From an uncultured Bacteroidia bacterium (GTDB taxonomy: Bacteria > Bacteroidota > Bacteroidia > Bacteroidales > CAJPTX01), in NCBI GenBank assembly GCA_938038735.1, contig CALHSW010000034.1:46335-110334 (forward strand): a DNA stretch of 64,000 nucleotides, read 5' to 3'. Position numbers and translations under genes: made by a program. The notes under the pieces were generated by a model. It did no database searches and was not told the DNA's origin. It was given only the letters and a program-made list of their open reading frames with translations. Positions 3,599 to 57,971 of the stretch are shown piece after piece (position 1 is the stretch's first letter; every line of letters begins with the position of its first letter).

Positions 3599-3622
3599 CT
3601 CCATTTACTGCTGTTTCCAAAG

Positions 3623-3762
3623 GAGCATCTATTTTTGCACCAGTGCAGCCTGTTCGAGGGACGGGCTCTCAATAGCTGGGGGGATAAAGGTCCCCGGATT
3701 CTTGCCAATAGGGCAAGCCAGTCTGAAAGACTGACCCCGGCAATCCTGAACGCGCCCTCGCC
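3623..3762 (-). repeat. Four-hairpin dispersed element, full-length copy (minus orientation)
   Basis: Its reverse complement aligns with 54478-54650. It contains the hairpins cagtct-ttc-agactg, cttgcc-ctatt-ggcaag and gggg..cccc, plus the ctattgaga..ggctgc..ggtgc tail. Confidence 0.85.
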
Positions 3763-3826
3763 CTTCAGATTAGCTTGGCAAGACCATAACCTCCGCCCGT
3801 GTTCTGTCTGCAATGCCCTCCCCGAA

Positions 3827-3889
3827 CCCGCATGAACTTCCGCACCGCTACGCGGGCCAGCCCGCAGGGCGGATCGTTCTAAAAGGACC
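3827..3889 (-). repeat. Same family, 3'-half (module 2) partial copy
   Basis: The reverse complement ggtccttttagaacgatccgccctgcgggctggcccgcgtagcggtgcggaagttcatgcggg aligns with 56214-56269 and 11750-11800. Confidence 0.65.
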
Positions 3890-3944
3890 ACCCGCACAGC
3901 TTCTCGCTGCCCATTCCTACAAGGATCCGCTGTTTGGGTAGTGA

Positions 3945-7988: not shown

Positions 7989-8139
7989 CGTTCGAGAGGT
8001 TCGCAAGATAGTTAAGGGATAGCAGGGCGGGGCTTTCGGCTTCGCCCTGCTGCTTGCAGAGCGAAGGCTTCTCCTGGGCGTGCGTAGGTAGGTTTTGATA
8101 GGCTATCCCGACATCTGCCACCGGTTGTGCGTATGGAAA

Positions 8140-8208
8140 GGAGACTTGGGGATCTGAAGGCTCCGGCTATTGAAAGACCGTCCTGCAGATGGGGCTGCAT
8201 CGGTGCGG
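8140..8208 (+). repeat. Four-hairpin family, module-2 copy (degenerate)
   Basis: ggagacttggggatctgaaggctccggctattgaaagaccgtcctgcagatggggctgcatcggtgcgg aligns with 11715-11790. It lies downstream of the SNF gene and in its orientation. Confidence 0.7.
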
Positions 8209-8351
8209 TTGGGTGCAATAGGTGGTTGTCGGTTAGCTAAAGGCGGAGCCAATGTGCATCCTTGTTGGCAGCGTGGGGCAATGTACCCAACCGTGCTGGA
8301 CCGCCATTGCTCCTATGAATGCGTTCAGCTCCTACAAATCCCCATAAATGC

Positions 8352-11615: not shown

Positions 11616-11714
11616 GGAGCAATCCCCGTGGCGGTAAGGTAGAATTAAGGTTGGCGAGGACGATACCGCTTTAAGGCGAATTCAACGTAAGGATTGATTG
11701 GGGGCTGCGCGGGT

Positions 11715-11800
11715 GGAAGGGAGACCGGGGTCTAAAGCACCCCGGCTATTGAGGCCGTCCTGCGGGCGGGGCTGCGTCGGTGCGCAGATCTATGCGGGGG
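11715..11800 (+). repeat. Four-hairpin family, module-2 copy
   Basis: ggaagggagaccggggtctaaagcaccccggctattgaggccgtcctgcgggcggggctgcgtcggtgcgcagatctatgcggggg lies 100 nt downstream of the feoB stop in the same orientation. Confidence 0.8.
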
Positions 11801-12133
11801 ACGGAGGAGAAGGCGAGTATGCGCTGCTATGGTTGTAGCCTAGTTGTCCGAGCGAGGGCAGCCGTAGGGCTGGATTGCGGCGCTCAAGGCTGAAAAAGAA
11901 TGGGTCGGGGCTAGTTGGGGGATGCCTTTGATACACCAGCCTTTTTTGCGGCTGTGTAGGGATATACCTACGTGTCCGCCCCCATTGCCGAGAGGGAAAG
12001 GGGCTACATCGCGGCTAACGTTCACCTGAACATGAATGGTGGCTAATAGCTAGCCCTCAGCTAGCCCTCGCTAGGATTGGTGGCGGCCCGTATGGGTGTA
12101 CCCATCCTAGTGAGTCTTCGCTGTAACTTTGCG

Positions 12134-13249
12134 CTAATTCAGTTTATAGCGAGCCATATCCGCCTGCGTTTCAGCCGCCATCGTTGCAAGCGATTCAGAA
12201 GTGGAGCTCAGCTCCTGCGCGGAGCTAGAGTTCTCATTGGTAATTTGCACAAGCTGGTCGAGAGCGGCACTAATTTGCTCTGTACCAGTTTGCTGCTCTT
12301 GGCTTGCCGAGGCGATTTCCTGGATGATGCTACTAATCTTTCTGATGTTAGGAATGGAGGTGGTAAGCGCCTCTCCCATGTTGTCCACGGCACTGGCACT
12401 TTGCTTCGATAGGTCCTCAATCTCTTGCGCAGATTTTGCGCTAAGGTCAGCCAAGCGCCGCACCTCAGCGGCGACCACTGCAAAGCCCCTTCCGTGTTCC
12501 CCGGCTCGCGCCGCTTCAATGGCAGCATTGATTGCCAGAATATTGGTTTTTTGCGCAATGTCTCCAACCACCTCAATCTTTTCCTTGATTTCTTTCATGG
12601 CGGCAGCAGTGCGATCAAACTCCGCGCTCACCTGTCCCACCTCCTTGTCAACCTGCGAACTAATGACCGCCCCTTCTCGTGCGTTGTCAAGATTCTGCAT
12701 GATGTTGGCGGTCATCTGCTCCATGGAGGCAGAAATTTCTTCGGCCGAAGCGGCTTGGGTAGAAGCACCGTGGCTAATGTTGCCAGCCTGCGTATTGAAT
12801 TGCTGACTAGCCTCTACTACTTTTCTTCCATTCTGCTCATTGAGCATAATGCCTGCACGCATAGCATCTGCCATTTTGTCAAAGTTTGTTGCTAGAATCC
12901 CGATTTCATTGCGTTGCGATAGCAATTTGTTTTCCATCTTGATTGATAGATCGCCCTCGGCGACCATACCCATGCTGGAAGCGATTTTCTTAATTGCCCC
13001 CTGGATGGTACGCTGTATATACACAAATCCGAGGATTGCTATGGGAGCGATAACTGCGACACCAATCAGATACACCTTAACCCCATATATGGCAGTGAAG
13101 TACCCTATTATGACAAATGACACGGCTATGACAATGACAATGTTAGCGATGGTGCGCAAAAAGCTGCCTCTGAATATGTAGTTACAGAGCACGAAGAGCA
13201 ATGGCACTACAATGGAGAGTGCGGTCATGAATATTGCGAATGGTGACAT
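12134..13249 (-). CDS. Methyl-accepting chemotaxis protein-like transducer (membrane N-terminus + HAMP + MCP signalling domain)
   Basis: 371 aa. It has about 3 N-terminal TM helices, a HAMP-like segment, and the highly conserved hairpin tip [35 protein letters not shown]. Confidence 0.88.
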
Positions 13250-15846: not shown

Positions 15847-18800
15847 ATGAGTTCGGTGCGAAGATTTATCAAGTTATTGCTTGCGGTGTCGTTGGCATTG
15901 ACAGCGGTTGAGGCGTGGGCGCAGTGGACCCTCCCGCCAGACTATAGTAAGGACAACGATGCGCAGAACCCGAAGGATATGCGTGGGGGCAAGGGGCAGG
16001 GTATGCGGCTGCTTTACTACGAGAGCTTTGAGGGTGAGCGTATTAGAACTACAGAGGGTTGGGGGACGATGCCAAAGAGCTGGGGCCAGGAGTTCATTGA
16101 AGGGGCAGGCATATCGCATACCACGGCGTATTGGGTGGTGGAGCCGGGCGGAGGGCGGCCCAACGATAGTGCCTCTCGGACGCCGTGGCGGCCGTATGAC
16201 GGAGAGTGGAACATGCTTTGCTACGTTAATTCTACCGGCGCAATGCAACGTTTGGTGACTCCGGAGCTGAATTTGAGCGGAGGGGATATTAGCGATCCCC
16301 GGTTGGTGTTCTACTATGCATCGCCGAAGGATTATCGCGGGTTCTGCCGGATGAGGGTGCAGTATCGGTTCGGCGAAGAGGAATGGAAAGACTTGGCTGA
16401 CGTGGAGGAGTTCCAGAGGGCGGACGATTGGGTTCCCGTATCGATTCCCTTACCGCCGGCACTGCGCGAGAAAGGTGGGTTGCAAATTGGTTTTGTATCG
16501 GTGCAGAACTATGGGTTCGGCACCGCGATCGATGAGGTTTACGTGGTGAACATGGATGGGGCGGAGACAGGGGTAAAGACTTTTGACCTCACCCCGCAAT
16601 CCCCGATAATAGCACGCGGCGCGAAGAATGTGCCGTTGATGCGGATGGATGTGACGCTTACTTCGGGCGGCGGGAAGCTTAAGCTTCAAGGTTTTAATGG
16701 CAAGGAGGAGCCAACCAGTCGGTCAGTAGAGGTTCATGCCTTGGATGGGAACGGGCAGCCTCTGATGCAGGATGCCCTTTCCAACTTTAGGTTGTTTGTG
16801 GGCAGGGGGGGTAAATTTTCAGATGCCGTGGAGGCTGCTAAGCTGGATTTCACTGGCGGTGCTGGAAAACCTTACGAGTTGAAAACCTTTAACATAAAGG
16901 ATCACAAAGCGTTGATCATGCAAGGCGGCAACACGTATAACGTGTGGATAGTGGCCGATGTGAATGACGTAGTGAGCACGCCGTACAAGACGCGAATTTG
17001 GGTGGATGTTGCCGAGGAGACGACTAAATTTGTGTGGTACAAGAATGATGAGAATCCTACAAGCCTAAATGGCACGAAGCAGAGCTTCTTCCCCGCAAAA
17101 GGTCACTCCTACGAAACGCCCGAGGTGCAGAAGTCTGTGGTGTATAAGAGTCTATTTTTTGATGACTTTGAGGCGGGGCTAGACAAGTGGAATCGTTTGA
17201 GCGGAGCAGCACAGCAGTTGTGGGCGGTAGGGAGTCCGAAGGATGCCTCAGGGGGATCCTTCCTATCGGGGGGAAGACCTTTGGAGGAGCAGGTGAAGAG
17301 TGCCTATTCAGGGGACAAAGTGCTAGCGACTGGGGAGCTAGCACAGGATGGAGAAAAGTTGCGTGCGCGCTACTTCGCGAACATGGTATCGGCGAACAAT
17401 CAGAATGAGTGCGCTTGGGTGGAAATAAAGGATCAGATAGATGCCTCTCAGGTGAAAGATGTGTATCTCGTGATGCAGAAGTCGTTCAATACGCCGAGCG
17501 GCATGCTGCTATTTGTAGAGGGGAAGTATGAAGGTAGTACAACAACGTGGGTGGAATTTGCGAGGTATAATGTCTCGTCTTCCGACTGGCAGGGGTGGCA
17601 GGAGCTCCCATTGCGTCTCTCAAGGGCAGATGGCCGTAAGTTTAATCTGCGGCTGCGAGCCTTCTATCCCAAAGGCGACGTGGCACATACAGGTTTTGTA
17701 ATAGATGATTTGCGAATATTAGGCAACGAAGTGCAGAACGATGTGGGCATTACGGGGCTTAAGGTTACGGAGAGCTGGGACAACGGCAATGGTCGCAAGG
17801 CGGTGTTCACCGTGCGTAACTATGGTGTGAATGTGCAAAAGGACATCAAGTATGATGTGTATGTCGATGGGAACTTGGTGCTGGGAGGGCAGAGTCTGCC
17901 TGAAGGTGATTTGGCTGCGGGCGGGAGCCGAAATGTAAAAACGGATGAGCTTGCGGCCTTGAAGGCGGATTTGAATAGAGACAATACCCATGAAATAGAG
18001 GTGCGGCTCAAGTTAAGCACGGATGAGGACATGAGCAACAACGTTGCTCGGGTGACCACCTATTCATACCCCACGATACCGGTGAGCGATGCAAAACCCT
18101 ACCCAGAGAACTTTGGAGACCCAATGCACCATTGGTTCGGCGGGGAGGCGTATCGAGAAGGCTTTAAGTCCTCATGGCTATTTAATTCGGTGTATTCCAT
18201 TTCGAAGTGCCGGGATAATAGCGGGAAGCAGGCGGGACCCTTCGGTGAGGGAATGCTGCTGGGTAGCTACATATGGACGACGGGCGACCATACGGCGTTC
18301 GGTTTTGAGCAGTCGGTGCTGACGAGTCCTGTATTTGAGATAAGCACGCAAGATGCGAAGAATCGAAAAGAGTTTGTGATGGCCTACACCACGCAGGGGG
18401 AGAATGTGGAGGTGCAGGTGGAGTACCGGAAGGAGAATGGAGACTGGCAGCGGCTTGAGAAGTCTGCGCAGTGGGAGAAGGAGTGGTACGATGGGAGCGG
18501 TGCAGTGTGGAAAGGTTCGACGACCGAGGGGTATAAAATCGTGAAGACCCTATTGCCAGACGATTTGCAAGGTGTAGGAGGTGCTGTGAAGGCGCAATTT
18601 AGGGTGTACTTCTATAATAGGAGTGCCGATCGTGTGCCGGGCATAGCGGTTAATGGGATAGAGGTGCGTTCCGTGAGGTCGGATATATACGTTAAGTCCA
18701 TTGAACCGAGGGGCGGCTGCGAGAATCCGCTCGGGAACGATGAGACGCTGCGGGTGACGATTGCGGTGAATGCGGAACCCGCGATTGCGTACGGAGCACG

Positions 18801-21800
18801 GAAAGATTTTCCGGTGTCAATAAAAGTAGTGAGAGACGGAGAGAAGACGTATAGCGTGGTGAAGCCAGTGGATCTGCCTGCATTGGCTCCTGGCCAGTCC
18901 CACACGGTTAACACGGAGGTTCAAGTACCATGGGCTGCAAAGTGGGGAAAGAATAGCGAGGTGACAGTGACACTGCTTCCGCAGAGCGGGGAGAATGGAG
19001 AGGCGGACGAGGATGTTTCCAACAATGTTCTTGCGCAGACGATAGAGGCGAAGGTGCCTGCAGTGTTCCCATTGAAGGAAATTGTGAAGGAAGAAGGAGG
19101 TTACGTCCTCTATGCGTTGATGAACAATGGGTTGAAGCTACAGACGGAGCCTGAGCAGGGAAGCGGGTATGAGGGATATACCTTTAGCGATTTTTCCATT
19201 TCTGGGGGTGAGAGTTTTGCTACGATAAGCGGTGAGACTTTTACTGCCAAAGGTGAAGGTCTAATAAAGTTGAAATATAAAGTTAATGGAGAATGTGAAG
19301 AGAAGCTCCCGATTGAGATAAAGAGGGCGCAGTGCGATGTGGCCGTGGAGCATGTTGAGCCGGTGGGGGATGTGAACTGTAAGGATGAAGGGGAGGCATT
19401 GGCTTTTAAGGTGGCTATCAAGGATAACAAGCAGCCGAGTCAGGCGCAGGGCCTACGATTGGTGGTGACGCAAGGGGGGCGCGAGGTGTATAATGAGTCT
19501 GCCAAGCTGGGAGAACAAACGGTAGAAGTGATCAAGGCGCGCAGCGGAGGCGGCGTGCTGAAGTTTACGGCAGTGGCGGCTGCGGATATGGATGGATCGA
19601 ACAACACAAAAGTGTATGAGCCGGAGGTTCTTTTGTACCCCAAGCCATTGAAAGTATTCTTGCAGGATGTGAGCGACCCAACCTATATGCAGCGAGTTGA
19701 AAATGGGTCTGATCAGAACACGTATGGCAATCGGCAGTGGCAGCTTTACGTGCCAAAAGTGTCGGTGATTCCGAAGATAAACTGGACGCACCGAGGCTAT
19801 ACGATGAGTAGTCAGGAGGATGGGTACATAGTAAGGCTTGGGCAGGCGAGTGGGGAGTTTGTGGCTTTGGCGACGCTGAGCAATGGTACAGACCAGTGTC
19901 CGGAAAAGAAGGTGTTCTCCGTAAATGTTAAAAATGAGGACGTTGAGGTGCAGAGCTTGGGGGGAGGAACCGGTGCGCCGGGGCTCTGCGCGGATGCGCA
20001 AGGAGAGTATGAGGTATACGTGAGTCTGATGAACCATTCGTGGGTGAGCTATAGTCCAGAAACATGGTTGGGCTTTGAGCTGTCTGGGCCGAATGGCGAG
20101 TCTAAAAGAACCGTGCAGGTGCAGTTAACGGATGAATGGCAGCCGAAAGTACTTCTTTTATTACCGCTTGGGAAGCTTCCGAAAGAACTTAAGGATTTGG
20201 CCGTTGGTAATGCGGTGAGCTTGAAGGTGAAGTACCTAGGGGTGTATGATGCTGACAAGATAGAACTTACGCCTGATGCCAACGAGGCCAATAACGAAGT
20301 AGTGACGGAGCTAAAGCTGTCAAGTGCACCTAAGGTGGAATGGGAGGTGCCAGGTTTGAATCCGGAGGGGAACGAGTTCGTGGTGCGGAAGGTGTTTAAG
20401 GACGTGCCAACAGTGACTGGTACGTTGAAAGTGAAGGGTGGAGACCCGGTGGGTATGCACTACGCATGGTATAGCAAGTCGAAGCGGGCCGATGCGTGGA
20501 CCCTTCAGGAAGGGGGTGTTCAAGGTCCCGGCGTGTACAACATAATGGGAATAGCGGACGATTGCTACAAGGTGGAGGTGACGAATCAGGCGGGGTGTAG
20601 GTCGGAGCTGGAGATGCGGTATATACAAACGGATTTGGGCTTTACTAGCGGAAAGGTGATGGAAACGCCGACCGAGTCATGTGCATTGACGGACAACGAT
20701 GGTAACGTGCGTTTGATTTTTAAGAATACGGGTAGCAAGCCGTTAACGAGCGAGGAGAAATTTAGGGTTACGTTTCAAGTACAAGTCGATGGTGAGCTTC
20801 GGCCCTATACTAGCGATGTGATGTGGTTTTCGCCCGAGTTGGAGGTGAACGAAAGTCGGAGTGAGCTGGTAAAGGTAGAGAACTTGAGTACCCTTATAGC
20901 AGAGCTTCAGAAGAAAGCGGATGCGGATCCCAAGGGGAAGGAAAAGGCGAGATTGGCTTTCTATAATATAGAACTGAAAGCGGAAGGAGACTGGTCGGTA
21001 TCAGGCGCTGCCAACAAGGATAGGAGGAAGCGGGTTGCAGGGGTCACTCTTGAGGAATGGGGGGCGCCGCGCCCGACGGTTAAACTGTACTCGGGGGTGC
21101 CAGGGACGGAATTGTATCAAGGCAATGTGCGGAATCCGAAAGCTAAACAGGTAGGGCCGCAAGAAGGCTTTAGAAAAGGACAGGTGGATGGCATTGATAA
21201 CACCTACGGAGACCTTGTGGGAGTGGTTTCTAAAGCTCCTGGAGAGAAGGCGGAGTGGCTATGGCACTACACGTATACAAAGTTCAACAAGTGGCCAGAC
21301 GTGAAGTTGGCTTATGCAGTGGAAGATAGCGTGGTTAGTATTCCGCAGGCTAAGCAGACGGATTGGATGGAGCAGAATAAAAACCAAGTTGGAACGACCC
21401 CAGAGGGAGAGCCGAAGCGCCCCGATGGGACGTACACAGTGGTAGTAACAGGGGCGCATGAGTGCGTGTCGCGGGTTCAATTCACCGTGGCGGATAAGGC
21501 GTACGACTTGAAGCTTGAAGCGGTGCGGCCACCGCAAGACGAGTGCGATTTTAAGGGGAAGTCAACGAAGGTTACCGTTATCGTGCGCAATGTGGGAACT
21601 ATGTCCATAGACCCAAAGGCTGAGATAGTGCTTAAGCTGTCTCGTACAGATGATGTGCAGAGTCTTACCGAAAATTGGGCCAAAGCAGCCTATACAAATT
21701 TTTTGGGCACTGCGGAAGGAGCTACTACTAATATTAGTACGCATACAATAGAGAAATTAAATAATGGGAAGGCTTTGGAGCCGAATGGCGCGGTAGCCAT

Positions 21801-24800
21801 AGATGTGCCGGTGACGCTATACTACGAGGCCACTGATACAAAGGGGGTGGTTCGCTCGTTGCTTGATGGCGTGACGTTTGAGTATAGTGCTGAGGTGACG
21901 TTTGCTAATGGTGACTTCCACGAAGCGAATGTTGATAATAATAAGTCGGCAACAAAGGTAGCGGTGCGGGATATATCGTCTCCAAAGGTGACCGGATTTT
22001 TCTTGGAGTCCAACGGCAATTCTAAAACCTTCACAGGAGACCGCATCTTGTACCAATGGGATGAGACCCAAATGCATGGTGAGCCAGTAGCAGTGACTTT
22101 GGGGGCGTACGTATCGAACGAAGGTCTTGAGGATAGGAATTGGTATTTGCGAGGGGCGATGCATCAAAGCGGTGCGGCAAATATTACCAAGATTACAGGA
22201 TCAACTGCTACGGTGGATGGATATGGTAGCGCGGAGCTGGTGGTGAGTAACAATCGTTGTGAAGGGACAGGCGTTTTCACTATAGTAGGGACAGGGGCTG
22301 CATTGATAGTAGATAGCATCAAGGGGATCCCAGACGAGCTTTGCCCCGAACAGGTGGCTGGAAAACGGAAGCTGACGGTGAAGATTGTCAATCCGACCCC
22401 GACGCCTATCAACACAACAGCAGATGGGTGCGGCCAGAACCATAAGCAGGAAGCCACGGTAACGCTGAGCCTCGATGGGAATGCGCTCAAGACGACACCC
22501 CCGAAGCGGCTAAGTGCTGAGAAGTTCTTTGGGCCTAAGAAGGAATTGTACGGAGGCGAACAGGTTAATGGCGTTTGGAAGCGGGGGACTAAGGTAGTAG
22601 GTATTGGCGTTGGGATGAGTGCATTTGATATGATTTCCGTTACGTTTGATGATGTTGAACTAGATGGGACTCACCTACAGCCGGGTACGGAGGGTACGAT
22701 AACGGTGTCGCTTAGCGGCGGGTGTGTGGATGAAGGGGTCGTCGATTCGAAGGATAAGAAGGTCAAGGTGAACAAGAGTCCAGATTTGAGGGAGGTTCTA
22801 AAGCGTAGTCCGTTAGAGCAGTATGCCCTGCGAGGTTCGGCGGCAGCATGGAAGGAGGAGTGGAGTTCGCAGCAGAAGTTGCAAGAAGAGATGGAGTGGG
22901 GCAAGAAGGACGAGAGTTCCGCTATTGTTAGGGCTACCGTTGAGCAGTTGGGTACGGATAACAAGTATAATTTAAAGCTAAGCGCAGCGAAGCCCGGTAC
23001 GTATGTGCTGAAGGTAACGGATAAGGAGAAGGGATGCGCCAGTAGCAAGGAGGTAGAGGTACAGATGCCGGGGTTCTTGACGTTGGCGGAAGGAGATGCG
23101 ATAACGGTGGAGCCGAAAGATTTGCTAACGGGATCGTGCAAATACGATAAGGCGGCGCAAGCGCTGAAGGTAAAGGTAGTCAATAATGGGAATGAGCCTT
23201 TGGCGCTTGCAGGGAAGCGCACGTCGATAAGGCTTACATACTCCAAGAATGGGGAAAAAATAATTTCGTCTCCATCTTTGGACTACACGTTTGATGTAGG
23301 AGCTGCAGATTTAGGTGTGGGAGGCGAGATGGAGATAGATGTGAGCGTACCATTTAAGGGAGTAGATTTTAGCGGAGATGGTGTGTACGATTTGAACTTC
23401 GTTTTGCAGCAAGGTATAACCGATCCAGTGGATGGAGCACCAGATGAACTCCGTAGCGTTAATCCGAAGAATCTAACCGTCAAGCGGTACTACCAGCCGA
23501 CGGCAAAGCCAGATTTAGCGGCACAGGTGAAAGTTTGGGGAGGGCAAAGTGTTGATTTCAAAGCGTTGCCTAAAGATAAGAAGGTGCTGACGCTATATGG
23601 TTTGGCTAAGAATCCAAAGTTAGAGTATGGTCGTCCGACTAGCGAGGAGTATAATACTCTGCAAAAAAATGGTACGATGTGGACTTGGTATGTAGATGGA
23701 GAGCAAGTGCTGGGGCCAGCACCCATTGCGTATGAGAAGAAGTTTGTGATCCCGCAGCCAGATGGGATTGTGAAGGTAGTGATGCAGACCAAGGATGGAT
23801 GTTCGCTTGAAAGCGATGAGGTGGAGATGCGGCGGTTGAAAGAGTTTAAATTCGGTGAGGTCCGGCTGGGGAAGATGAGCAATAGTAAGTGTGCGGAGGA
23901 GAGTTCGGTTGATGGAACAGAGCAGGAGGTGACAGGTTCACTTAAGCTGGAGATGGCCGATGTTCCGCTGGCGGCGGGGACAAAAATTGAGTTGAGGTGC
24001 GCCTACACGCAGGGAAGTCCAGACGAGAAGAAAGAGGACGATGTATCGATAGTGTTGGATAAGGAATATAAAGCAGGGAATTCGATACCGTTCAAGATAA
24101 TGTTGCCATTTAAGGTTGGGACGAATAGCGTGGAGGTGCTTGGAGGTCAGTACGTTGAACCACATTCCCAAAGGCCTTCGCTGATAGGGAGGAGTACGAC
24201 ACGTGAGATTTTTGATGTTTTGGCATACCCGACGTTGCAAAGTGAGATTAAGAAGGAGCAGAAGGCGTACGCAAGTCCATATTCAATAGAATTTCCTGCT
24301 GTGGAACCCAGGAACGAAGTGGAGTACAGTTGGGAGAACAAACCGTATTCGAAGAGTCCTGATTTTCAAGTAACCGAAAGTGGAGGTTATCGCGTGTGGG
24401 TAAAACGGGCAAACGGCTGCATTTTGGAGGGCAATGTGCGGGTAGATTTCTACTTTAAGTATGATCTTTCTTTGGGCGCAGGCGGAAGCGTGAGGGTGAT
24501 AGATGCAGAGACCGGTGAGGAGTACAAGCAGGGAGAACAGGTAATAAAGGATGGGGCGAAGGTGAAGATAGAGCCAGTTGCGAATGCAGGTTATCATGTG
24601 CTGGGAGCAAAGGTGAACGGAGATGTATTTGATCTAGGATCAGTGTACCCCGTATTGAAAGACTTCAATGTAGAAGTTCTCTTTAGTAAGGATAACAATC
24701 CCACACCGCCAGGGCCTAATAATGCTGTAGAGAGCGAGTTGCTGAGCGAGTTGGTAGCAGTAAATCCGTTTACAGGCGTGCTGCGGCTGTATGGTGCGGA

Positions 24801-24984
24801 GAATGTGGAGAGCTACGTGGTGTACAATCAGCTGGGCAACGAGCTACTCCGGGGAGTGAATACTTCTGGCGGCCGTGTGCTAGATATAGATGCTGCGCAG
24901 CTGCACGAAGGGGTTTACGTGGTGAGGCTACGGGATTCGTTGGGCGGTGAGAGAGCTCTAAGAGTAGTGAAGGTGAGGCGCTAA
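15847..24984 (+). CDS. Giant (3045 aa) T9SS-secreted multi-domain surface protein
   Basis: The signal peptide is MSSVRRFIKLLLAVSLALTAVEAWAQ. At least 5 CARDB-like beta-sandwich modules end in xNN signatures (DMSNNVARV, DVSNNVLAQ, DGSNNTKVY, NEANNEVVT, NVDNNKSAT). An InlB-B-repeat-like module sits near the C-terminus. The type-A T9SS CTD is NPFTGVLRLYGAENVESYVVYNQLGNELLRGV...GVYVVRLRDSLGGERALRVVKVRR. Confidence 0.85.
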   Translation: MSSVRRFIKLLLAVSLALTAVEAWAQWTLPPDYSKDNDAQNPKDMRGGKGQGMRLLYYESFEGERIRTTEGWGTMPKSWGQEFIEGAGISHTTAYWVVEPGGGRPNDSASRTPWRPYDGEWNMLCYVNSTGAMQRLVTPELNLSGGDISDPRLVFYYASPKDYRGFCRMRVQYRFGEEEWKDLADVEEFQRADDWVPVSIPLPPALREKGGLQIGFVSVQNYGFGTAIDEVYVVNMDGAETGVKTFDLTPQSPIIARGAKNVPLMRMDVTLTSGGGKLKLQGFNGKEEPTSRSVEVHALDGNGQPLMQDALSNFRLFVGRGGKFSDAVEAAKLDFTGGAGKPYELKTFNIKDHKALIMQGGNTYNVWIVADVNDVVSTPYKTRIWVDVAEETTKFVWYKNDENPTSLNGTKQSFFPAKGHSYETPEVQKSVVYKSLFFDDFEAGLDKWNRLSGAAQQLWAVGSPKDASGGSFLSGGRPLEEQVKSAYSGDKVLATGELAQDGEKLRARYFANMVSANNQNECAWVEIKDQIDASQVKDVYLVMQKSFNTPSGMLLFVEGKYEGSTTTWVEFARYNVSSSDWQGWQELPLRLSRADGRKFNLRLRAFYPKGDVAHTGFVIDDLRILGNEVQNDVGITGLKVTESWDNGNGRKAVFTVRNYGVNVQKDIKYDVYVDGNLVLGGQSLPEGDLAAGGSRNVKTDELAALKADLNRDNTHEIEVRLKLSTDEDMSNNVARVTTYSYPTIPVSDAKPYPENFGDPMHHWFGGEAYREGFKSSWLFNSVYSISKCRDNSGKQAGPFGEGMLLGSYIWTTGDHTAFGFEQSVLTSPVFEISTQDAKNRKEFVMAYTTQGENVEVQVEYRKENGDWQRLEKSAQWEKEWYDGSGAVWKGSTTEGYKIVKTLLPDDLQGVGGAVKAQFRVYFYNRSADRVPGIAVNGIEVRSVRSDIYVKSIEPRGGCENPLGNDETLRVTIAVNAEPAIAYGARKDFPVSIKVVRDGEKTYSVVKPVDLPALAPGQSHTVNTEVQVPWAAKWGKNSEVTVTLLPQSGENGEADEDVSNNVLAQTIEAKVPAVFPLKEIVKEEGGYVLYALMNNGLKLQTEPEQGSGYEGYTFSDFSISGGESFATISGETFTAKGEGLIKLKYKVNGECEEKLPIEIKRAQCDVAVEHVEPVGDVNCKDEGEALAFKVAIKDNKQPSQAQGLRLVVTQGGREVYNESAKLGEQTVEVIKARSGGGVLKFTAVAAADMDGSNNTKVYEPEVLLYPKPLKVFLQDVSDPTYMQRVENGSDQNTYGNRQWQLYVPKVSVIPKINWTHRGYTMSSQEDGYIVRLGQASGEFVALATLSNGTDQCPEKKVFSVNVKNEDVEVQSLGGGTGAPGLCADAQGEYEVYVSLMNHSWVSYSPETWLGFELSGPNGESKRTVQVQLTDEWQPKVLLLLPLGKLPKELKDLAVGNAVSLKVKYLGVYDADKIELTPDANEANNEVVTELKLSSAPKVEWEVPGLNPEGNEFVVRKVFKDVPTVTGTLKVKGGDPVGMHYAWYSKSKRADAWTLQEGGVQGPGVYNIMGIADDCYKVEVTNQAGCRSELEMRYIQTDLGFTSGKVMETPTESCALTDNDGNVRLIFKNTGSKPLTSEEKFRVTFQVQVDGELRPYTSDVMWFSPELEVNESRSELVKVENLSTLIAELQKKADADPKGKEKARLAFYNIELKAEGDWSVSGAANKDRRKRVAGVTLEEWGAPRPTVKLYSGVPGTELYQGNVRNPKAKQVGPQEGFRKGQVDGIDNTYGDLVGVVSKAPGEKAEWLWHYTYTKFNKWPDVKLAYAVEDSVVSIPQAKQTDWMEQNKNQVGTTPEGEPKRPDGTYTVVVTGAHECVSRVQFTVADKAYDLKLEAVRPPQDECDFKGKSTKVTVIVRNVGTMSIDPKAEIVLKLSRTDDVQSLTENWAKAAYTNFLGTAEGATTNISTHTIEKLNNGKALEPNGAVAIDVPVTLYYEATDTKGVVRSLLDGVTFEYSAEVTFANGDFHEANVDNNKSATKVAVRDISSPKVTGFFLESNGNSKTFTGDRILYQWDETQMHGEPVAVTLGAYVSNEGLEDRNWYLRGAMHQSGAANITKITGSTATVDGYGSAELVVSNNRCEGTGVFTIVGTGAALIVDSIKGIPDELCPEQVAGKRKLTVKIVNPTPTPINTTADGCGQNHKQEATVTLSLDGNALKTTPPKRLSAEKFFGPKKELYGGEQVNGVWKRGTKVVGIGVGMSAFDMISVTFDDVELDGTHLQPGTEGTITVSLSGGCVDEGVVDSKDKKVKVNKSPDLREVLKRSPLEQYALRGSAAAWKEEWSSQQKLQEEMEWGKKDESSAIVRATVEQLGTDNKYNLKLSAAKPGTYVLKVTDKEKGCASSKEVEVQMPGFLTLAEGDAITVEPKDLLTGSCKYDKAAQALKVKVVNNGNEPLALAGKRTSIRLTYSKNGEKIISSPSLDYTFDVGAADLGVGGEMEIDVSVPFKGVDFSGDGVYDLNFVLQQGITDPVDGAPDELRSVNPKNLTVKRYYQPTAKPDLAAQVKVWGGQSVDFKALPKDKKVLTLYGLAKNPKLEYGRPTSEEYNTLQKNGTMWTWYVDGEQVLGPAPIAYEKKFVIPQPDGIVKVVMQTKDGCSLESDEVEMRRLKEFKFGEVRLGKMSNSKCAEESSVDGTEQEVTGSLKLEMADVPLAAGTKIELRCAYTQGSPDEKKEDDVSIVLDKEYKAGNSIPFKIMLPFKVGTNSVEVLGGQYVEPHSQRPSLIGRSTTREIFDVLAYPTLQSEIKKEQKAYASPYSIEFPAVEPRNEVEYSWENKPYSKSPDFQVTESGGYRVWVKRANGCILEGNVRVDFYFKYDLSLGAGGSVRVIDAETGEEYKQGEQVIKDGAKVKIEPVANAGYHVLGAKVNGDVFDLGSVYPVLKDFNVEVLFSKDNNPTPPGPNNAVESELLSELVAVNPFTGVLRLYGAENVESYVVYNQLGNELLRGVNTSGGRVLDIDAAQLHEGVYVVRLRDSLGGERALRVVKVRR

Positions 24985-49319: not shown

Positions 49320-49426
49320 CCCATCTTTCACTATCTAGTAAAATTTGAAGGCGTGCAGCCTTGCTTTGGCCGTTGAACGGTCATAAATGCTGCGGTTTAG
49401 TTTGCCCTTTGAAGGCTATTAACCGG

Positions 49427-49493
49427 CTACCAACACCGTACCCCCTTCGCATCAAATTCGGATTTCTCCGGAGAAATCCGAATTTGATGCGAA
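49427..49493. repeat. Palindromic intergenic element, copy 2 (perfect 48-bp palindrome at 49446-49493)
   Basis: 49441-49493 is identical to 311-363. It lies in the convergent gap between the PP2C paralogue 2 gene and proS. Confidence 0.9.
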
Positions 49494-49614
49494 TTTGAAC
49501 CGAATGGGGTGCGAAGCCGTAGGCTGTTGCCGTACGGCTATGCGAGGCGTTCATGCCATGGAGAACGGGTCTTTGTAACTTGGTTTACAGCACCGTGGGG
49601 TGAAAATATACGTA

Positions 49615-52816: not shown

Positions 52817-54364
52817 ATGAAAATGAAAAGAATATTGGCGGTAGGCGTGACGTTGGCCCTGGGGGGGCTGACGTACGCTACGGCGCAGACGATGGATGAC
52901 CTGGTGCTATACTCGCTGGAGGATCAGACGGGATCGGCGCGGGCAGTGGGGCTGGGAGGGGCTCTAGGGGCTGTGGGGGGCGATATGGCCTCCATGGCTG
53001 GCAACCCCGCTGGGCTGGGGATGTACAGAGGAATGGAGTTCTCGGGGACGGTTTCGCTGGGGGGGCATGCGGTGCGCACCCGCTTTGTGGATCAAAAGAG
53101 CATTGCGCGGCGCCTGGTGCCAGGGTTTGATGGTACCGCCGCCATTTTCTCGCTGCGGGTTGGTGATGTTGACAAGACGAGCGGGCTGCTGCGGGTGAAT
53201 TTTGGTATCGGCTACAATAAGCTGCAGAGCTTCCGCTTCCGGCAGTCCTACAAAGCGGAGGTGAACGATGGGAATTCGCTCCTAGCGGCCATAGCGAGCG
53301 AGTCAAATGCGCAGGGGCTGGTTGGAAACAATTTGTTGCGGGGGAATAGCTATGTGCCATACGATACGCAGCCGTGGTTCCCCGCCGCGGCTTACGGTAG
53401 CTACCTAATGCTGGATGGAAGCCCTAAGGGAACTTTTAAGGCTCCATGGATCCTTTCGGGGACAGCGGGGTTTGTGGATGAGCGGTTGCGGCAGTCGGTG
53501 GTAAAGGATAGTAGGGGTTCTTTGGGCGAAATTGATATGTCTGTGGCGTTCAACGTGACGAATCGTATCTACTTTGGCGCCACGCTAGGAATTCAGCTTC
53601 TGGAGCGAGAGGTGAACACCCGCATGCGGGAGGAGACGGCTGAGGAGAAGGATGCCGGTTTGCTATGGGGGCAGTTCAACTCGTACGATAGGGTAAAGGG
53701 GGCTGGCGTAAATCTGAAGTTGGGCGCACTCTACCGCCCCGTGGATGCGCTCCGTATCGGGCTGGCGTTCCATACGCCTACGTTTATGAATGTTGAGAAT
53801 CGCTTCTCCTTGAGTGCGCGTGGGGAGTATAGGAATCCAGACACTGTGTACGGCGAACCGGAGGTACCAAAGACTGCGGATAGTTCAGGGGTCTACGAGG
53901 GAGAGTTTAGCTATACTGGACCGATGCGGGCTATGGCCTCTTTGGCCTATTCCTTTGGGAAGCGGGGGCTGGTGACGGCGGAGTACGAGATGACCTACTT
54001 GCCGCTCATGCAGTTTTCGGGGATGGATTACGCGCAGGATAACGAGGATATAGAGAAGTATTTATTGCCGACGCATGAGGTGCGTGCTGGCACGGAGTGG
54101 TTCTTTGGCGCATTGGGGGTTAGGCTAGGAGGAGGGTTTAGAACATCGCCCTACCGTGCGGATGAGTTCTCGCCGCTACGCTGGAGAATGTACGTGAGCG
54201 GGGGGATAGGCTATTATGGGAGTTATTTCTTCTGCGATTTTGCGTATCGCCATACCATCCAGCCTGGGGAGGGGTACATGTACCAAATGGGAGGATACCA
54301 GCGGGCGTACGATAGCCGTTTCTACAGGGGTACAGGCTTGTTGACGTTCGGGTTCCGCTTTTAG
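52817..54364 (+). CDS. Outer-membrane beta-barrel protein, FadL/PorV-like
   Basis: 515 aa with signal peptide MKMKRILAVGVTLALGGLTYATAQ. The N-terminal motif GSARAVGLGGALGAVGGDMASMAGNPAGLGMY resembles the FadL/PorV family pattern. The terminal F in LLTFGFRF is a beta-signal. Confidence 0.65.
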   Translation: MKMKRILAVGVTLALGGLTYATAQTMDDLVLYSLEDQTGSARAVGLGGALGAVGGDMASMAGNPAGLGMYRGMEFSGTVSLGGHAVRTRFVDQKSIARRLVPGFDGTAAIFSLRVGDVDKTSGLLRVNFGIGYNKLQSFRFRQSYKAEVNDGNSLLAAIASESNAQGLVGNNLLRGNSYVPYDTQPWFPAAAYGSYLMLDGSPKGTFKAPWILSGTAGFVDERLRQSVVKDSRGSLGEIDMSVAFNVTNRIYFGATLGIQLLEREVNTRMREETAEEKDAGLLWGQFNSYDRVKGAGVNLKLGALYRPVDALRIGLAFHTPTFMNVENRFSLSARGEYRNPDTVYGEPEVPKTADSSGVYEGEFSYTGPMRAMASLAYSFGKRGLVTAEYEMTYLPLMQFSGMDYAQDNEDIEKYLLPTHEVRAGTEWFFGALGVRLGGGFRTSPYRADEFSPLRWRMYVSGGIGYYGSYFFCDFAYRHTIQPGEGYMYQMGGYQRAYDSRFYRGTGLLTFGFRF

Positions 54365-54393
54365 AGATTTTGAAAGGATAGGCTAGCTGTGCG

Positions 54394-54427
54394 GGGGCGG
54401 ACCGGTGCTGGGCCGCCCCTTTGTTTG
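54394..54427 (+). terminator. Rho-independent terminator after the barrel gene
   Basis: The ggggcgg...ccgcccc stem is followed by tttgtttg, 30 nt after the stop. Confidence 0.7.
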
Positions 54428-54477
54428 GAGTGATTCGCAGGGTTTGCCCTCCGCAGCCACCCTTTTTCATCACCACG

Positions 54478-54650
54478 TTGAATTTGCGCTCGCAGTCGGT
54501 CGTCAGGGTCAGTCTTTCAGACTGGCTCGCCTTTTAGGCGAGGAGACCGGGGGTTTAAAAACCCCCGGCTATTCAAAGACCGTCCTCCGGACGGAAAGCG
54601 CAGCGGCTGCGCCGCACCCCTTCAAACATCTGCGCTTTCAGTTGTGCAGG
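54478..54650 (+). repeat. Four-hairpin dispersed element, full-length copy (plus orientation)
   Basis: It reads ttgaatttgcgc..ggtcagtctttcagactgg-ctcgccttttaggcgag-gagaccgggggtttaaaaacccccgg-ctattcaaagaccgtcctccggacgg..ggctgcgccgcac. Confidence 0.85.
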
Positions 54651-54769
54651 CAACCGTATATGGCCTCTCCTACATTTCGCAACCTATAGCGGTGTAGCTT
54701 TGCGCATTATTCTGCTGCGGGCACGGCCAACCGAATACCGTCACAACCTGCACCAACGCAGATTAAAAC

Positions 54770-54950
54770 CCGCATAAACCTGCACGCACTGCTACCAAAC
54801 CGGCACATACAATGCGCCACGTCCTTGCATGGATTCTCGCTGCCCATGCAATCCCGTCCGAAGGACGGTCTCTCAATAGCCGAGGGTCTTTAGACCCCCG
54901 GATTCTTGCCCACAAGGGCAAGACAGTCTGCAAGACTGACCCTGATGACC
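54770..54950 (-). repeat. Four-hairpin dispersed element, full-length copy (minus orientation, with an internal insertion)
   Basis: The reverse complement reads ggtcatcagggtcagtcttgcagactgtcttgcccttgtgggcaagaatccgggggtctaaagaccctcggctattgagagaccgtccttcggacgg...gtttatgcggg. It lies tail-to-tail with the 54478 copy. Confidence 0.8.
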
Positions 54951-55107
54951 TTGGCACTATTCCTTCGGCCGCACGGGTTGACCATTGTTGCCGACCTCTC
55001 GGGGAGTATAGGTAACAATTTTTATCTTCAAAATGCGCGGGGTGAAGAGGCTGATTTGTTGCTTTTTTCTTTACTTCGCGGCGTGAAGAAACTTAGCGCG
55101 AAGAGAG

Positions 55108-56100
55108 ATGAAAAATGCGGGAGGTCTGCCGCAGGATGGTAGACAGCCAGAAGTTCAGAGTCTTTTTATAACCCATTGGGACTTGAGTTTGCCAACGCTA
55201 GGCAAGGAGGAGGCGGGAAAGAAGGTGCAGCCACGCAGCGTGGAGTTCCCCTTGGTAGCGGCTGGGGCGCAGCTGTGGGTGCGTGCTGAAGGGGCAGCGG
55301 AGTGGACGTTGGGCCCTGTAGCCGAAGCCGAGGTGCTGGATGTGGACGAGGATACGCAGCGCGTACCGCCAACGGTGGTGGACATTGCGGCGTTGCTGCC
55401 CTCTGTAAAGGGCAGTCGCTTCGAGATAGGCGTGGAGCCTGGCGCGCTGCAGGGTGTGCAGTTTGGGGGGTACTACGAGTCGGAAGAGAGCTACGTGCCT
55501 ATGCGGGATGCGCAGCGATTGGTGGCGGTAGTGCAGTGGGGCACAGCGCAATGGACAGAGATGTACGAAGCGTTTGCCGATTGCAGCAATATGCAGATTA
55601 CTGCGACCGATGTACCCGATTTGGCACGGTGCGGGTCGCTGCACAGCGCCTTTATGGGGAGCGGCGTGGAGGAGGGGTTTGCAGGGTGGAACGTGGGGAG
55701 TGTTGTTGATATGAACGCTATGTTCTACGGTTGTAGCCGGTTCGTGGGGAAGAGCCTTGCAGAGTGGGATGTACGGAACGTGGAGTCGATGGCAATGATG
55801 TTCATGGAGTGCGAGAATTTTGACGGCAAGCTGGGGCGTTGGAACGTGGCGAATGTTCAGGATTTTACGTCTATATTCTCTGGGTGTAGCGCGTTTCGAG
55901 GAAGGGGGGTGGAGCGTTGGCAGGTGCAGGAAGAGGCGGAGCGAGAGGGGGCTTTTGATGGGTGTTTCTCACTGCTGGAGGGGCAGCCCGCATGGATGGG
56001 GGAAATGGACGAGGGAGATGAAGGGCGCTATGAGGATGACGAGGCGGAGCGCGGGGAAAGGGTTCGCAAGTTCCGCCCCAATGCTGCGGCGGATGATTGA
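55108..56100 (+). CDS. DUF285/BspA-type leucine-rich-repeat protein with an acidic tail
   Basis: 330 aa. The repeated W(N/D)V.xV..M..MF..C..F pattern appears in WNVGSVVDMNAMFYGCSRFVGKSLAEWDVRNVESMAMMFMECENFDGKLGRWNVANVQDFTSIFSGCSAF. No signal peptide or T9SS CTD is visible. The start is uncertain. Confidence 0.7.
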   Translation: MKNAGGLPQDGRQPEVQSLFITHWDLSLPTLGKEEAGKKVQPRSVEFPLVAAGAQLWVRAEGAAEWTLGPVAEAEVLDVDEDTQRVPPTVVDIAALLPSVKGSRFEIGVEPGALQGVQFGGYYESEESYVPMRDAQRLVAVVQWGTAQWTEMYEAFADCSNMQITATDVPDLARCGSLHSAFMGSGVEEGFAGWNVGSVVDMNAMFYGCSRFVGKSLAEWDVRNVESMAMMFMECENFDGKLGRWNVANVQDFTSIFSGCSAFRGRGVERWQVQEEAEREGAFDGCFSLLEGQPAWMGEMDEGDEGRYEDDEAERGERVRKFRPNAAADD

Positions 56101-56123
56101 GTTGATTGCAAGGATTGGGTCAC

Positions 56124-56269
56124 GCGAGCCAGTCTGAAAGCCTGACCCTGGCGGATGATTGCGGGCGCAAATTCAATGCGTGGATTAACATAGGGGGGCA
56201 GCGCGGGTCACTCCTATTGAGAGACCGCCCTACGGGCGGGGCTGCATTGGTCATAAATTTTATGCGGGG
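56124..56269. repeat. Four-hairpin family, rearranged composite (5' part inverted at 56124-56178, module 2 forward at 56214-56269)
   Basis: The reverse complement of 56124-56178 aligns with 54478-54530 (gaatttgcgc..cagggtcaggctttcagactggctcgc). 56214-56269 reads ctattgagagaccgccctacgggcggggctgcattggtcataaattttatgcgggg. Confidence 0.75.
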
Positions 56270-56457
56270 CAGGAGAGGGCGGTATTTGATCGACCGTATA
56301 GGAGCGTTCCGACAATGTTCTAACGATAGGCTTGCGCTCCATTCCCTGCATGGAGCTTGCATCGCAATAACGCCAACAGCTATTTTATTGGTCGCACCTA
56401 ACTGCCCTCTGCGTTGAAATCCCCTTGCTGCAGTGCTTGGGAGTTGCGTAAAATTCG

Positions 56458-57092: not shown

Positions 57093-57666
57093 AGAGCTGC
57101 AAGCAGCACCATCCGTGCAGGAGTGCATTTGGATGGCCACGCTGCGAAAGCCTGTAGGTATAAAGGGAAGGGTTGCGTTCATGTGGCGCGACCCTTTCTA
57201 TTTCGATAACGTACAGATTGGCGATGGGTGTTTCCTATTCGTTGAGCGCGATGGACTGTTGGTGCCGTACGAGGTGCTAGATATCGACGAGCGTGGGGAT
57301 GGGCGATCCTCTGTGGCGTTAGGGCTTGTGGGCACGGTGGATGAGGCCAAGGCGCTGCAGGGGTTGCGAGTTTTTGTACCCAAACAGTGGGTTTTGGATA
57401 GCCCGAGCGATTCGTTGCTTGGCGGGGATTTGGAGTCTATGCTGCTGGGGCACTACGTGGAGGATGAGGAGGGGCGTATGGTGGGGCGAGTGCGTAGGGT
57501 GTATCAATACCCCATGAACGTGGTGTTAGGGGTGGAGCGTGCGGGCGGAGAGGAGGTGCTGCTGCCGCTATCGGAGGAGTTACTCATTGAGATGCCGCAG
57601 CAGCCGGAGCCATCGGAGGGGTTCCCGCTTAGGTTGCGCATTCCGAAGGGGCTGATAGAGCCGTAA
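57082..57666 (+). CDS. rimM: 16S rRNA processing protein RimM
   Basis: The conserved N-terminal strand [15 protein letters not shown] lies downstream of the ATG at 57082, and the M at 57133 would truncate it. The gene overlaps rpsP by 11 nt. rpsP-rimM synteny is classic. Confidence 0.8.
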
Positions 57667-57714
57667 CCGGGTGTCCTACGGCGGGGCTGCGAAGGCCGTA
57701 AATTTTATGCGGGG
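57667..57714 (+). repeat. Four-hairpin family, module-2 copy directly abutting the rimM stop
   Basis: ccgggtgtcctacggcggggctgcgaaggccgtaaattttatgcgggg starts 1 nt after the TAA. Confidence 0.75.
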
Positions 57715-57971
57715 TCTGCAGGCGTTGTATGCCGTTTTATGCGGGTATTGGGAGGGGGTGTGCGGGTCGCGGCGGGAGCAGGGTTGATCGTACGTTGGCA
57801 CTGATACATTGCCGAAGGTAAGGGTGTGCGGAGGGGGCCCCAGATTGCGTGCGGTGTGAGGCAATGGGGGCGCCATTTTGCGGTGCTTGCATGCAATTTG
57901 ATTTTTCAAAGTACGTAAGAATTCGTAACTTGCGGCCGTTGAATTATTTGAAAAAAAAAAGGAAAAACGAG

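Follow-up and report, generated by a model that had tools for sequence, protein, structure and literature searches.

Repetitive extragenic palindromic (REP) sequences and bacterial interspersed mosaic elements (BIMEs) are short, G+C-rich palindromes which occur in hundreds of copies outside genes and at gene 3' ends, in mosaic arrays and as inverted heterodimers of two subtypes (PMC2817692, PMC3333891, PMC3733652), and REP doublets which form hairpins are called REPINs (Bertels and Rainey 2011, PMC3116915). The REPs tagged by CGTC are reported from Bacteroidetes too, without a dedicated transposase (Di Nocera et al. 2013, PMC3733652); they are defined by a stem of 8-9 bp with A-T in positions 1-2, a loop of 4-5 nt and a CCA tail (PMC3733652). 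The BOX elements of Streptococcus pneumoniae are made of boxA-boxB-boxC modules, have a stable predicted structure, are intergenic and resemble miniature inverted-repeat transposable elements (MITEs) without a clear transposase (PMC3184786). The bcr1 repeats of the Bacillus cereus group are structured as well, with several stem-loops for which compensatory base changes have already been reported (PMC3184786). Here we analyse a repeat family carried by 64,000 nt of DNA from an uncultured Bacteroidia bacterium (contig CALHSW010000034.1, positions 46,335 to 110,334; this whole stretch is called the window below), starting from an inverted pair of copies at 54478-54950 of the window. This pair is one copy of a recurrent heterodimeric, two-armed composite of about 460 bp. 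The family is previously undescribed and belongs to the known class of structured interspersed bacterial repeats; it is probably specific to the lineage, made of non-coding, modular interspersed repeats rich in palindromes, and equivalent in function to REP/BIME, BOX or MITE-like elements.

The pair lies in an intergenic gap of 743 nt, between an open reading frame (ORF) for a FadL-like outer-membrane protein (end at 54364) and a DUF285 ORF (start at 55108). The initial annotation of the window had described there two facing copies, separated by a spacer of 120 nt, of a unit of about 170 nt with four hairpins (A to D). The inverted pair and its hairpins A-D are present as described, with inverted arms at 54498-54594 and 54854-54950 which are 97 nt long each and 81% complementary. 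The unit is however longer, about 220-230 nt, with a fifth hairpin (E) and a tail of about 100 nt, and what had been taken as a spacer is the place where two tails meet. The parts of the pair are the following:

54468-54506, plus strand: head module (module H) of the left, subfamily-2 arm, about 40 nt, catcaccacgttgaatttgcgctcgcagtcggtcgtcag
54510-54524, plus strand: hairpin A of the left arm, CAGTCT-TTC-AGACTG, a palindrome close to invariant across the family
54526-54542, plus strand: hairpin B of the left arm, CTCGCCT-TTT-AGGCGAG, where compensatory variation across the family is clearest
54547-54568, plus strand: hairpin C of the left arm, CCGGGGGTT-TAAA-AACCCCCGG (CCGGGGG...CCCCCGG), whose apical pairs covary across the family
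54569-54579, plus strand: conserved, unpaired linker, CTATTCAAAGA in its subfamily-2 form (CTATTGAGAGA in the subfamily-1 form)
54580-54594, plus strand: hairpin D of the left arm, CCGTCC-TCC-GGACGG, close to invariant
54598-54612, plus strand: hairpin E, the fifth, of the left arm, GCGCAG-CGG-CTGCGC, by which subfamily 2 is recognised
54613-54735, plus strand: degenerate tail of the left arm (boundary approximate)
54736-54853, minus strand: tail of the right, subfamily-1 arm, with the motifs GCATGG..GAGAATCCATGC and GTGCAGGTTTATGCGGG (boundary approximate)
54854-54938, minus strand: core of the right arm (covariance-model match 54832-54949, 126 bits)
54854-54868, minus strand: hairpin D' of this core
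54869-54879, minus strand: linker of this core
54880-54901, minus strand: hairpin C' of this core
54905-54922, minus strand: hairpin B' of this core
54924-54938, minus strand: hairpin A' of this core
54939-54950, minus strand: head of the right arm, GGTCATCAGGGT when read on the minus strand, where subfamily-1 units have their sharp 5' boundary

When the left arm is folded as RNA, exactly this row of hairpins is returned, with z = -4.95 relative to shuffled sequences (z = -5.18 for the complementary strand), and the whole pair can fold into one long hairpin (z = -12). Module H is also found 5' of hairpin A in other subfamily-2 copies (loci L094, L108, L111, L125 and L136), and once more in the window at 56149-56197 on the minus strand; 54457-54530 forms an inverted repeat (I2) with 56124-56197.

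A full unit consists of a head, GGGTCACGC, the G+C-rich hairpins A-E in fixed order, the conserved unpaired linker and the tail. Its 5' boundary is sharp: the information content climbs from zero at GGGTCACGC, immediately before GGGTCAGTCT. The tail extends over about 100 nt after hairpin D and carries two or three degenerate copies of a motif resembling GTGCAGGTTTATGCGGG; the period of head-to-tail arrays, about 220 nt, agrees with the length given above. There are two subfamilies. Subfamily 1 (133 full copies) has the linker CTATTGAGAGA and then GGGGCTGCAT after D, and is found alone or as head-to-tail arrays, while subfamily 2 (44 full copies) has the extra head module of about 40 nt, the linker CTATTCAAAGA and a perfect E hairpin. 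In about 35 of these 44 cases, an inverted subfamily-1 copy, either full or truncated, comes after the subfamily-2 copy, and among the copies classified no tail-to-tail pair joins subfamily 1 to subfamily 1. The flagged pair thus represents a heterodimer which recurs, rather than two copies brought together by chance. We found 27 such composites of 372-747 bp (the two-armed form itself is about 400-470 bp), and the pair of the window aligns end to end with several others at 70-80% identity. The composite has long complementary arms; in the single unit, which is far commoner, the head and the tail are unrelated. Arrays are dense and of mixed orientation, many partial copies retain only D plus the tail, and the mean identity within the family is about 78%.

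It is in the light of these composites that another origin of the pair, by chance juxtaposition of two independent insertions or by an artefact of assembly, appears extremely improbable. This origin would account for the fact that the pair is seen in full in the window only, at least 13 other contigs carrying a shorter allele at the same place (see below). It would not account for the same arrangement at about 27 other places, for the alignment of the pair with others from end to end, or for two arms which are 19% diverged and come from different subfamilies, which neither assembly collapse nor duplication would yield.

By its genes and its prolyl-tRNA synthetase, the window belongs to an uncultured Bacteroidia lineage without close relatives in culture; the best named relatives, at about 76% protein identity, are labelled merely as metagenome-assembled genomes of Bacteroidetes or Bacteroidia. 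The family is not confined to this region. In metagenomes, a specific 20-mer retrieved 75 loci (555 kb in total, mostly from two assemblies), one of which comes from the same species as the window (96.9% identity). A profile search of this DNA gives about 280 hits, of which 175 have a complete A-D core, and a covariance model, which the initial annotation had proposed to run on related DNA, gives 306 hits (in search sets of 555-662 kb). We also scanned reference genomes with an 18-mer having four degenerate positions. The matches listed, spread across phyla, are mostly due to chance, and the true copies among them (L014, L023 and L063) belong to two other metagenome-assembled genomes of Bacteroidia, one of them from a human mouth. 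Hence the family is present in at least three related uncultured Bacteroidia genomes. No family match was obtained in Rfam: the whole window has no hit at gathering thresholds, and an E-value scan of 54380-55050 gives a single match, a chance long non-coding RNA with E = 0.6. No match to the element was found in phage records, plasmid records or viral contigs. Several familiar systems were considered and ruled out: integron attC arrays (the units are not separated by cassettes), CRISPR (no spacers), riboswitches or leaders (these would be expected at the other end of genes), intrinsic terminators (no runs of T) and Bacteroidetes promoters (the consensus lacks the TAnnTTTG / TTTG pair in either orientation).

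None of 284 copies lies inside an ORF. The copies occupy 33% of convergent intergenic regions, 13% of co-directional ones and 10% of divergent ones (convergent versus divergent, p = 0.008). For 165 of the 284 copies, which stand close to the end of a contig or locus, no ORF was called on one side or on both in the DNA that was fetched. Relative to the upstream gene, 48 copies have the same orientation and 49 the opposite one; relative to the G-rich (presumed leading) strand, the bias is weak (53 versus 37). The GC skew of the window itself (1-64000) is strongly positive throughout, up to 0.34, and nearly all its long ORFs are on the plus strand. The commonest neighbours of element clusters are genes for BspA-type leucine-rich-repeat proteins and for AAA-ATPase/PDDEXK_9 proteins (L023 4294-6600, L063 2350-3975 and about 30 other ORFs of the metagenome); the repeats may mark variable gene neighbourhoods.

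Like REPs and BIMEs, the element is abundant and extragenic, prefers gene 3' ends and forms mosaic clusters, inverted heterodimers, unstable long hairpins and arrays of mixed orientation. Unlike them, it occurs in Bacteroidota and not in Proteobacteria, and no REP-associated tyrosine transposase (RAYT) was found by a search of part of the genomes with a single query. A REP is a single palindrome of 20-40 nt, whereas here the individual hairpins (15-22 nt, extragenic and highly repeated) are parts of an ordered set of five different ones with a tail, and it is this set of about 220 nt which is repeated. Moreover, head-to-tail tandem arrays are common here and rare in REPs, and the consensus has no GTAG, a motif which appears only on the minus strand where the variable loop of D is TAC. 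The likeness to REPINs is in the two inverted units which form one long hairpin and recur as a unit, with singletons alongside, and in a family common to related genomes, in which the element is about 80% identical between the two other genomes and the window, as against about 69% for coding DNA. The differences are that the arms are about 200 nt long each and come from two different subfamilies, that subfamily-1 singletons and tandem arrays outnumber doublets, and that no cognate single-copy transposase is known. As to the CGTC-tagged REPs, hairpin D does hold CGTC at the 5' side of its stem, and neither has a known associated transposase. D has however a stem of 6 bp, all G/C plus one T-A, a loop of 3 nt and no CCA tail, and is one module of a larger unit.

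We then come to the stems themselves. Paired changes between copies had been pointed out in the initial annotation, and the variants it quoted, CTCGCC/GGCGAG at 54478, CCGCCC/GGGCGG at 56214 and CCGTCC/GGGCGG at 11715, are all present. We counted pairs in 106 non-redundant full cores (less than 93% mutual identity), aligned with MAFFT blind to structure, on an explicit four-helix structure, the RNAalifold consensus on this alignment being poor owing to gaps in hairpin B. The proportion of paired cells in these cores is 92.9%. In hairpin B, the innermost pair is C-G in 51 cores, U-A in 40 and U-G in 7, and another pair is U-A in 75 and C-G in 13; the apical pairs of C are U-A (48) or C-G (34) for one, and U-A (70) or G-C (7) for the other. 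The number of double-change cells is 105, as compared to 44 in shuffles (the observed value is reached by none of 500 shuffles), and every measure of covariation collapses when the partners are slid by 1-3 columns. Hence, pairing selected, or maintained by a template, is real in stems B and C (for C, at the top of the stem). Across hairpins, every combination of the states of covarying pairs occurs among the copies. This means that the pattern is more than a split into two lineages, and that the modules assort or change independently.

The case of D, for which paired change had also been claimed, is marginal. Stems A and D are almost invariant, D being CCGTCC/GGACGG in most copies; its variants are mostly one-sided wobble forms (GGATGG in 13 copies, GGGCGG in 8), and the double change CCGCCC/GGGCGG is rare in the family. 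Selection or templated maintenance of pairing is thus weakly evidenced for this stem. In stems A, C and D, as in the unpaired linker, the sequence itself is conserved, beyond what pairing alone would need.

The covariation had been read as the signature of selection on secondary structure. It does not show an RNA. Leaving aside one consensus T-G position at the base of A, there are 62 G-T and 47 A-C mismatches, and the two are balanced at covarying pairs (for example 5 to 3). No run of T follows the hairpins of the element, and a terminator scan finds no terminator in it. As the two strands fold equally well, orientation relative to genes is unbiased, G-T and A-C are balanced and runs of T are absent, nothing marks the structure as RNA. 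The generic signature of structured RNAs, in which G-U is tolerated and A-C is not and one strand folds better than the other, is not found. Outside the element, on its 5' side, a terminator-like hairpin stands just after the FadL-like gene, at 54395-54430 (GGGGCGG-accggtgctgg-GCCGCCCC, then TTTGTTT); a simple terminator scan missed it, probably because its loop exceeds 8 nt.

One may still suppose that the units are cis-acting structured RNA modules of 3' untranslated regions, acting as exonuclease barriers, mRNA stabilisers or in a terminator-like way, with stems under selection for RNA folding. The place of the copies, just 3' of stop codons and enriched between convergent genes, would agree with this, as would the truly compensatory changes of stems B and C, the folding well below that of shuffles and the one-sided variants of D, which on the plus strand favour G-T over A-C (about 21 to 5); REPs and bcr1 are transcribed, and REPs stabilise mRNA (PMC3733652, PMC3184786). 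Yet such modules would not be expected to ignore the orientation of the upstream gene, to fold equally well on both strands, to show balanced G-T and A-C intermediates at covarying pairs or to lack a run of T, and a separate terminator-like hairpin with a run of T already stands before the element. Nor would they explain why the linker and stems A and D keep their sequence and not just their pairing, and a function at 3' ends fits poorly with two-armed composites and with arrays which reach six or seven units. We therefore consider this explanation rather unlikely. The G-T excess in D and the preference for gene 3' ends leave room, nevertheless, for an RNA role independent of orientation, as proposed for REPs.

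The sequence conservation of A, C, D and the linker, which exceeds the needs of pairing, and a behaviour independent of orientation would also suit a role of the elements in double-stranded DNA, primarily as sites which proteins of the host bind or use to structure the DNA (nucleoid-associated proteins, gyrase, or a methylase/restriction system), the palindromes corresponding to dimeric recognition, as proposed for BIMEs, which bind integration host factor and gyrase (PMC2817692, PMC3184786). This is very improbable to our mind: free covariation in B and in the apical part of C favours intrastrand pairing over base-specific contacts, no candidate protein was identified, and the amplification into arrays would be left without an explanation.

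We favour instead the view that the hairpins matter as intrastrand DNA structures, that is to say single-stranded hairpins or cruciforms which would be recognised by an enzyme acting in trans, of which HUH/Y1-type transposases may provide the model. Alternatively, templated repair within the palindrome could keep the hairpins perfect, and if the hairpins act in RNA, they would do so in either orientation. Spread and turnover would then result from transposition in trans together with recombination or gene conversion among copies. An nhmmer profile built from the copies recovers nine copies or fragments in the window, exactly the nine which had been listed in the initial annotation (at least nine had been claimed), five on one strand and four on the other. 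The linker-D motif has 5 matches in the window (0.02 expected by chance) and the hairpin-A motif has 4 (0.04 expected), and the family covers about 2% of these 64 kb. The copies are the following:

3599-3757, minus strand: full subfamily-1 copy, between convergent glycosyltransferase genes
3802-3902, minus strand: partial copy (D and tail), found by nhmmer
8111-8239, plus strand: degenerate copy (C, linker, D and tail), 3' of an SNF transporter gene
11689-11809, plus strand: copy with C, linker, D and tail, 3' of feoAB
54485-54663, plus strand: left copy of the flagged pair as delimited by nhmmer
54775-54967, minus strand: right copy of the flagged pair as delimited by nhmmer
56122-56197, minus strand: truncated left end of subfamily 2 (H, A and the start of B; nhmmer match 56122-56169)
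56194-56295, plus strand: partial copy (linker, D and tail), with D in the CCGCCC/GGGCGG form
57648-57770, plus strand: partial copy (D and full tail) overlapping the rimM stop codon (nhmmer match 57648-57731)

At the flagged site, at least 13 contigs from other samples have the same flanking proteins and a gap of 330 nt instead of the 743 nt of the window. In place of the pair (409 bases fewer) they carry a single, perfect, fused A hairpin, CAGGGTCAGTCT-GAA-AGACTGACCCTG, flanked by the subfamily-2 head module on the left and by the subfamily-1 head on the right. Both ends of the composite are thus retained: the short allele is not an empty site from before an insertion, and points to an internal rearrangement. 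It may have arisen by recombination or slippage from one A hairpin to the other, which the long hairpin would favour: A being a palindrome, its inverted copies are also direct repeats, and recombination between them would give exactly the fused-A product. The mirror image of this allele is seen at L124 294-490, where head-to-head copies on the minus and plus strands share one A hairpin. Beyond the site of L071-L076, no further solo extended A hairpin was found as a footprint of deletion. The long allele was seen in the window only, all the other contigs with the same flanking genes having the short one, and the two alleles differ by about 16% in the head module as against about 0.5% in the flanking genes. 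This raised divergence in the retained parts of the element means that conversion from another composite could equally have restored the full pair, that is, the reverse event is possible.

Other copies have changed as well. In L074, 38 unrelated bases stand in place of the segment 56114-56213 (100 bp, the truncated subfamily-2 end). In L071, the rimM copy is directly followed by one additional complete unit, which is flanked by a direct repeat of 97 nt (D and tail). All three strains examined have the copies at 3599, 8111 and 11689. The copy at 11689-11809 is nevertheless only 70.7% identical to its orthologue in strain L152, with changes concentrated in hairpin C, as compared to 95.7% for feoB and 93.3% for the gene of a methyl-accepting chemotaxis protein; likewise, the copy at 56114-56295 is 74.1% identical to its orthologue in L071, while the flanks are 97-98% identical. 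The divergence between orthologous copies fits frequent gene conversion or replacement among copies, and suggests either such conversion or a hypermutation associated with the hairpins. Most of the differences in intergenic length between the strains seen here appear to be due to the family.

Several observations weigh against a spread of the hairpins, as DNA structures, by an enzyme acting in trans. No direct repeats flank the sharp 5' boundary, that is, no target-site duplication was found. No clean insertion or empty site was found among the metagenome loci: among 20 indel events, most are coding indels or changes in array length, and the other differences between strains have the element's own sequence on either side. 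The polymorphisms observed could be due to nothing more than recombination and tandem amplification. The weak 53:37 strand bias leaves a strictly lagging-strand mechanism, of the IS608 type, unsupported. Clustering of all the ORFs of the loci revealed no transposase or other partner protein, and phmmer with E. coli RayT as single query gave nothing at E <= 10 among the six-frame ORFs of 732 kb, a part of the genomes. Finally, the G-T excess among the variants of D hints at some strand-specific constraint, and an RNA-level role at transcript 3' ends could coexist with the DNA-level one.

The families of ORFs which recur beside the elements (BspA-type leucine-rich-repeat proteins, AAA-ATPase/PDDEXK_9 proteins, methyl-accepting chemotaxis proteins, a C5 methylase and a basic family of about 250 amino acids) do not include any transposase. 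The last of these (N-terminus MAVYIPIRPKWNPRGVVVNYV) is a multi-copy family with 70-80% DNA identity whose sole match is a weak one to DUF6266; it is found at L132 8303-9106, L120 5906-6703, L135 8661-9416, L099 3726-4457 and seven more loci. It was rejected as the partner of the element, its distance to the elements varying from 30 bp to several kb.

Like BOX, the family is modular, structured and intergenic, with a variable number of modules and without a clear transposase; unlike BOX, to which its sequence is unrelated and from which its modules and host phylum differ, it varies by truncation, tandem repetition and inversion of whole units, whereas BOX varies mainly in the copy number of boxB. 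With bcr1 it shares a length in the range of about 155-220 nt, several stem-loops and compensatory changes which keep the structure; bcr1 has however flanking direct repeats of 5 bp and is clearly present or absent according to the strain, whereas no target duplication was detected in the present family, and the two are not similar in sequence. It differs from MITEs in that neither a target-site duplication nor an empty site was found in the strains compared, and from elements derived from IS200/IS605 (PATE-like) in that its strand bias is weak (53 versus 37 overall, 5 versus 4 in the window). One may go further and imagine a self-propagating, REPIN-like replicator with a five-hairpin unit, whose active form would be an obligate heterodimer of the two subfamilies and whose enzyme would not be a classical RAYT (perhaps a new HUH or single-stranded DNA recombinase); we regard this as quite unlikely.

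A second, unrelated repeat family was seen in the course of this work. It is a near-perfect palindrome of about 60 nt, found in the window at 299-380 and 49429-49516 and also at L080, L085, L086, L095, L097, L101, L112, L125, L127 and L139. Its core of 40 nt, CATCAAATTCGGATTTCTCCGGAGAAATCCGAATTTGATG, is invariant in 13 of the 13 copies found, with flanks CCCCCTTCG and CGAAGGGGG, a perfect conservation quite unlike that of the main family, with its mean identity of about 78%. At L071 6257-6545, 288 extra bases stand just 5' of this palindrome, which are absent at 49359-49361 of the window. The window also contains an ORF of 3045 amino acids (15847-24984) and, at 12134-13249 on the minus strand, the gene of a methyl-accepting chemotaxis protein (HAMP and MCPsignal domains), with paralogues at L080, L089, L101, L114, L132 and L134. 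Chemotaxis genes are uncommon in Bacteroidia.

Abundant structured repeats have been well studied in Proteobacteria, in pneumococci and in the Bacillus cereus group. For Bacteroidota there is very little work on them, and for uncultured lineages none is known. The present family has a practical side, as it breaks short-read assemblies, and it calls for caution, since compensatory changes in the stems of a repeat family are insufficient alone to indicate an RNA gene. It also follows a curious rule of pairing, by which subfamily 2 is nearly always joined to the inverse of subfamily 1. The family provides a ready marker for strain typing and a test case for the upkeep and spread of palindromic repeats without an evident RAYT. 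If a REPIN-like replicator were really at work, its rapid turnover in place would make this element a major driver of intergenic variation in the lineage.

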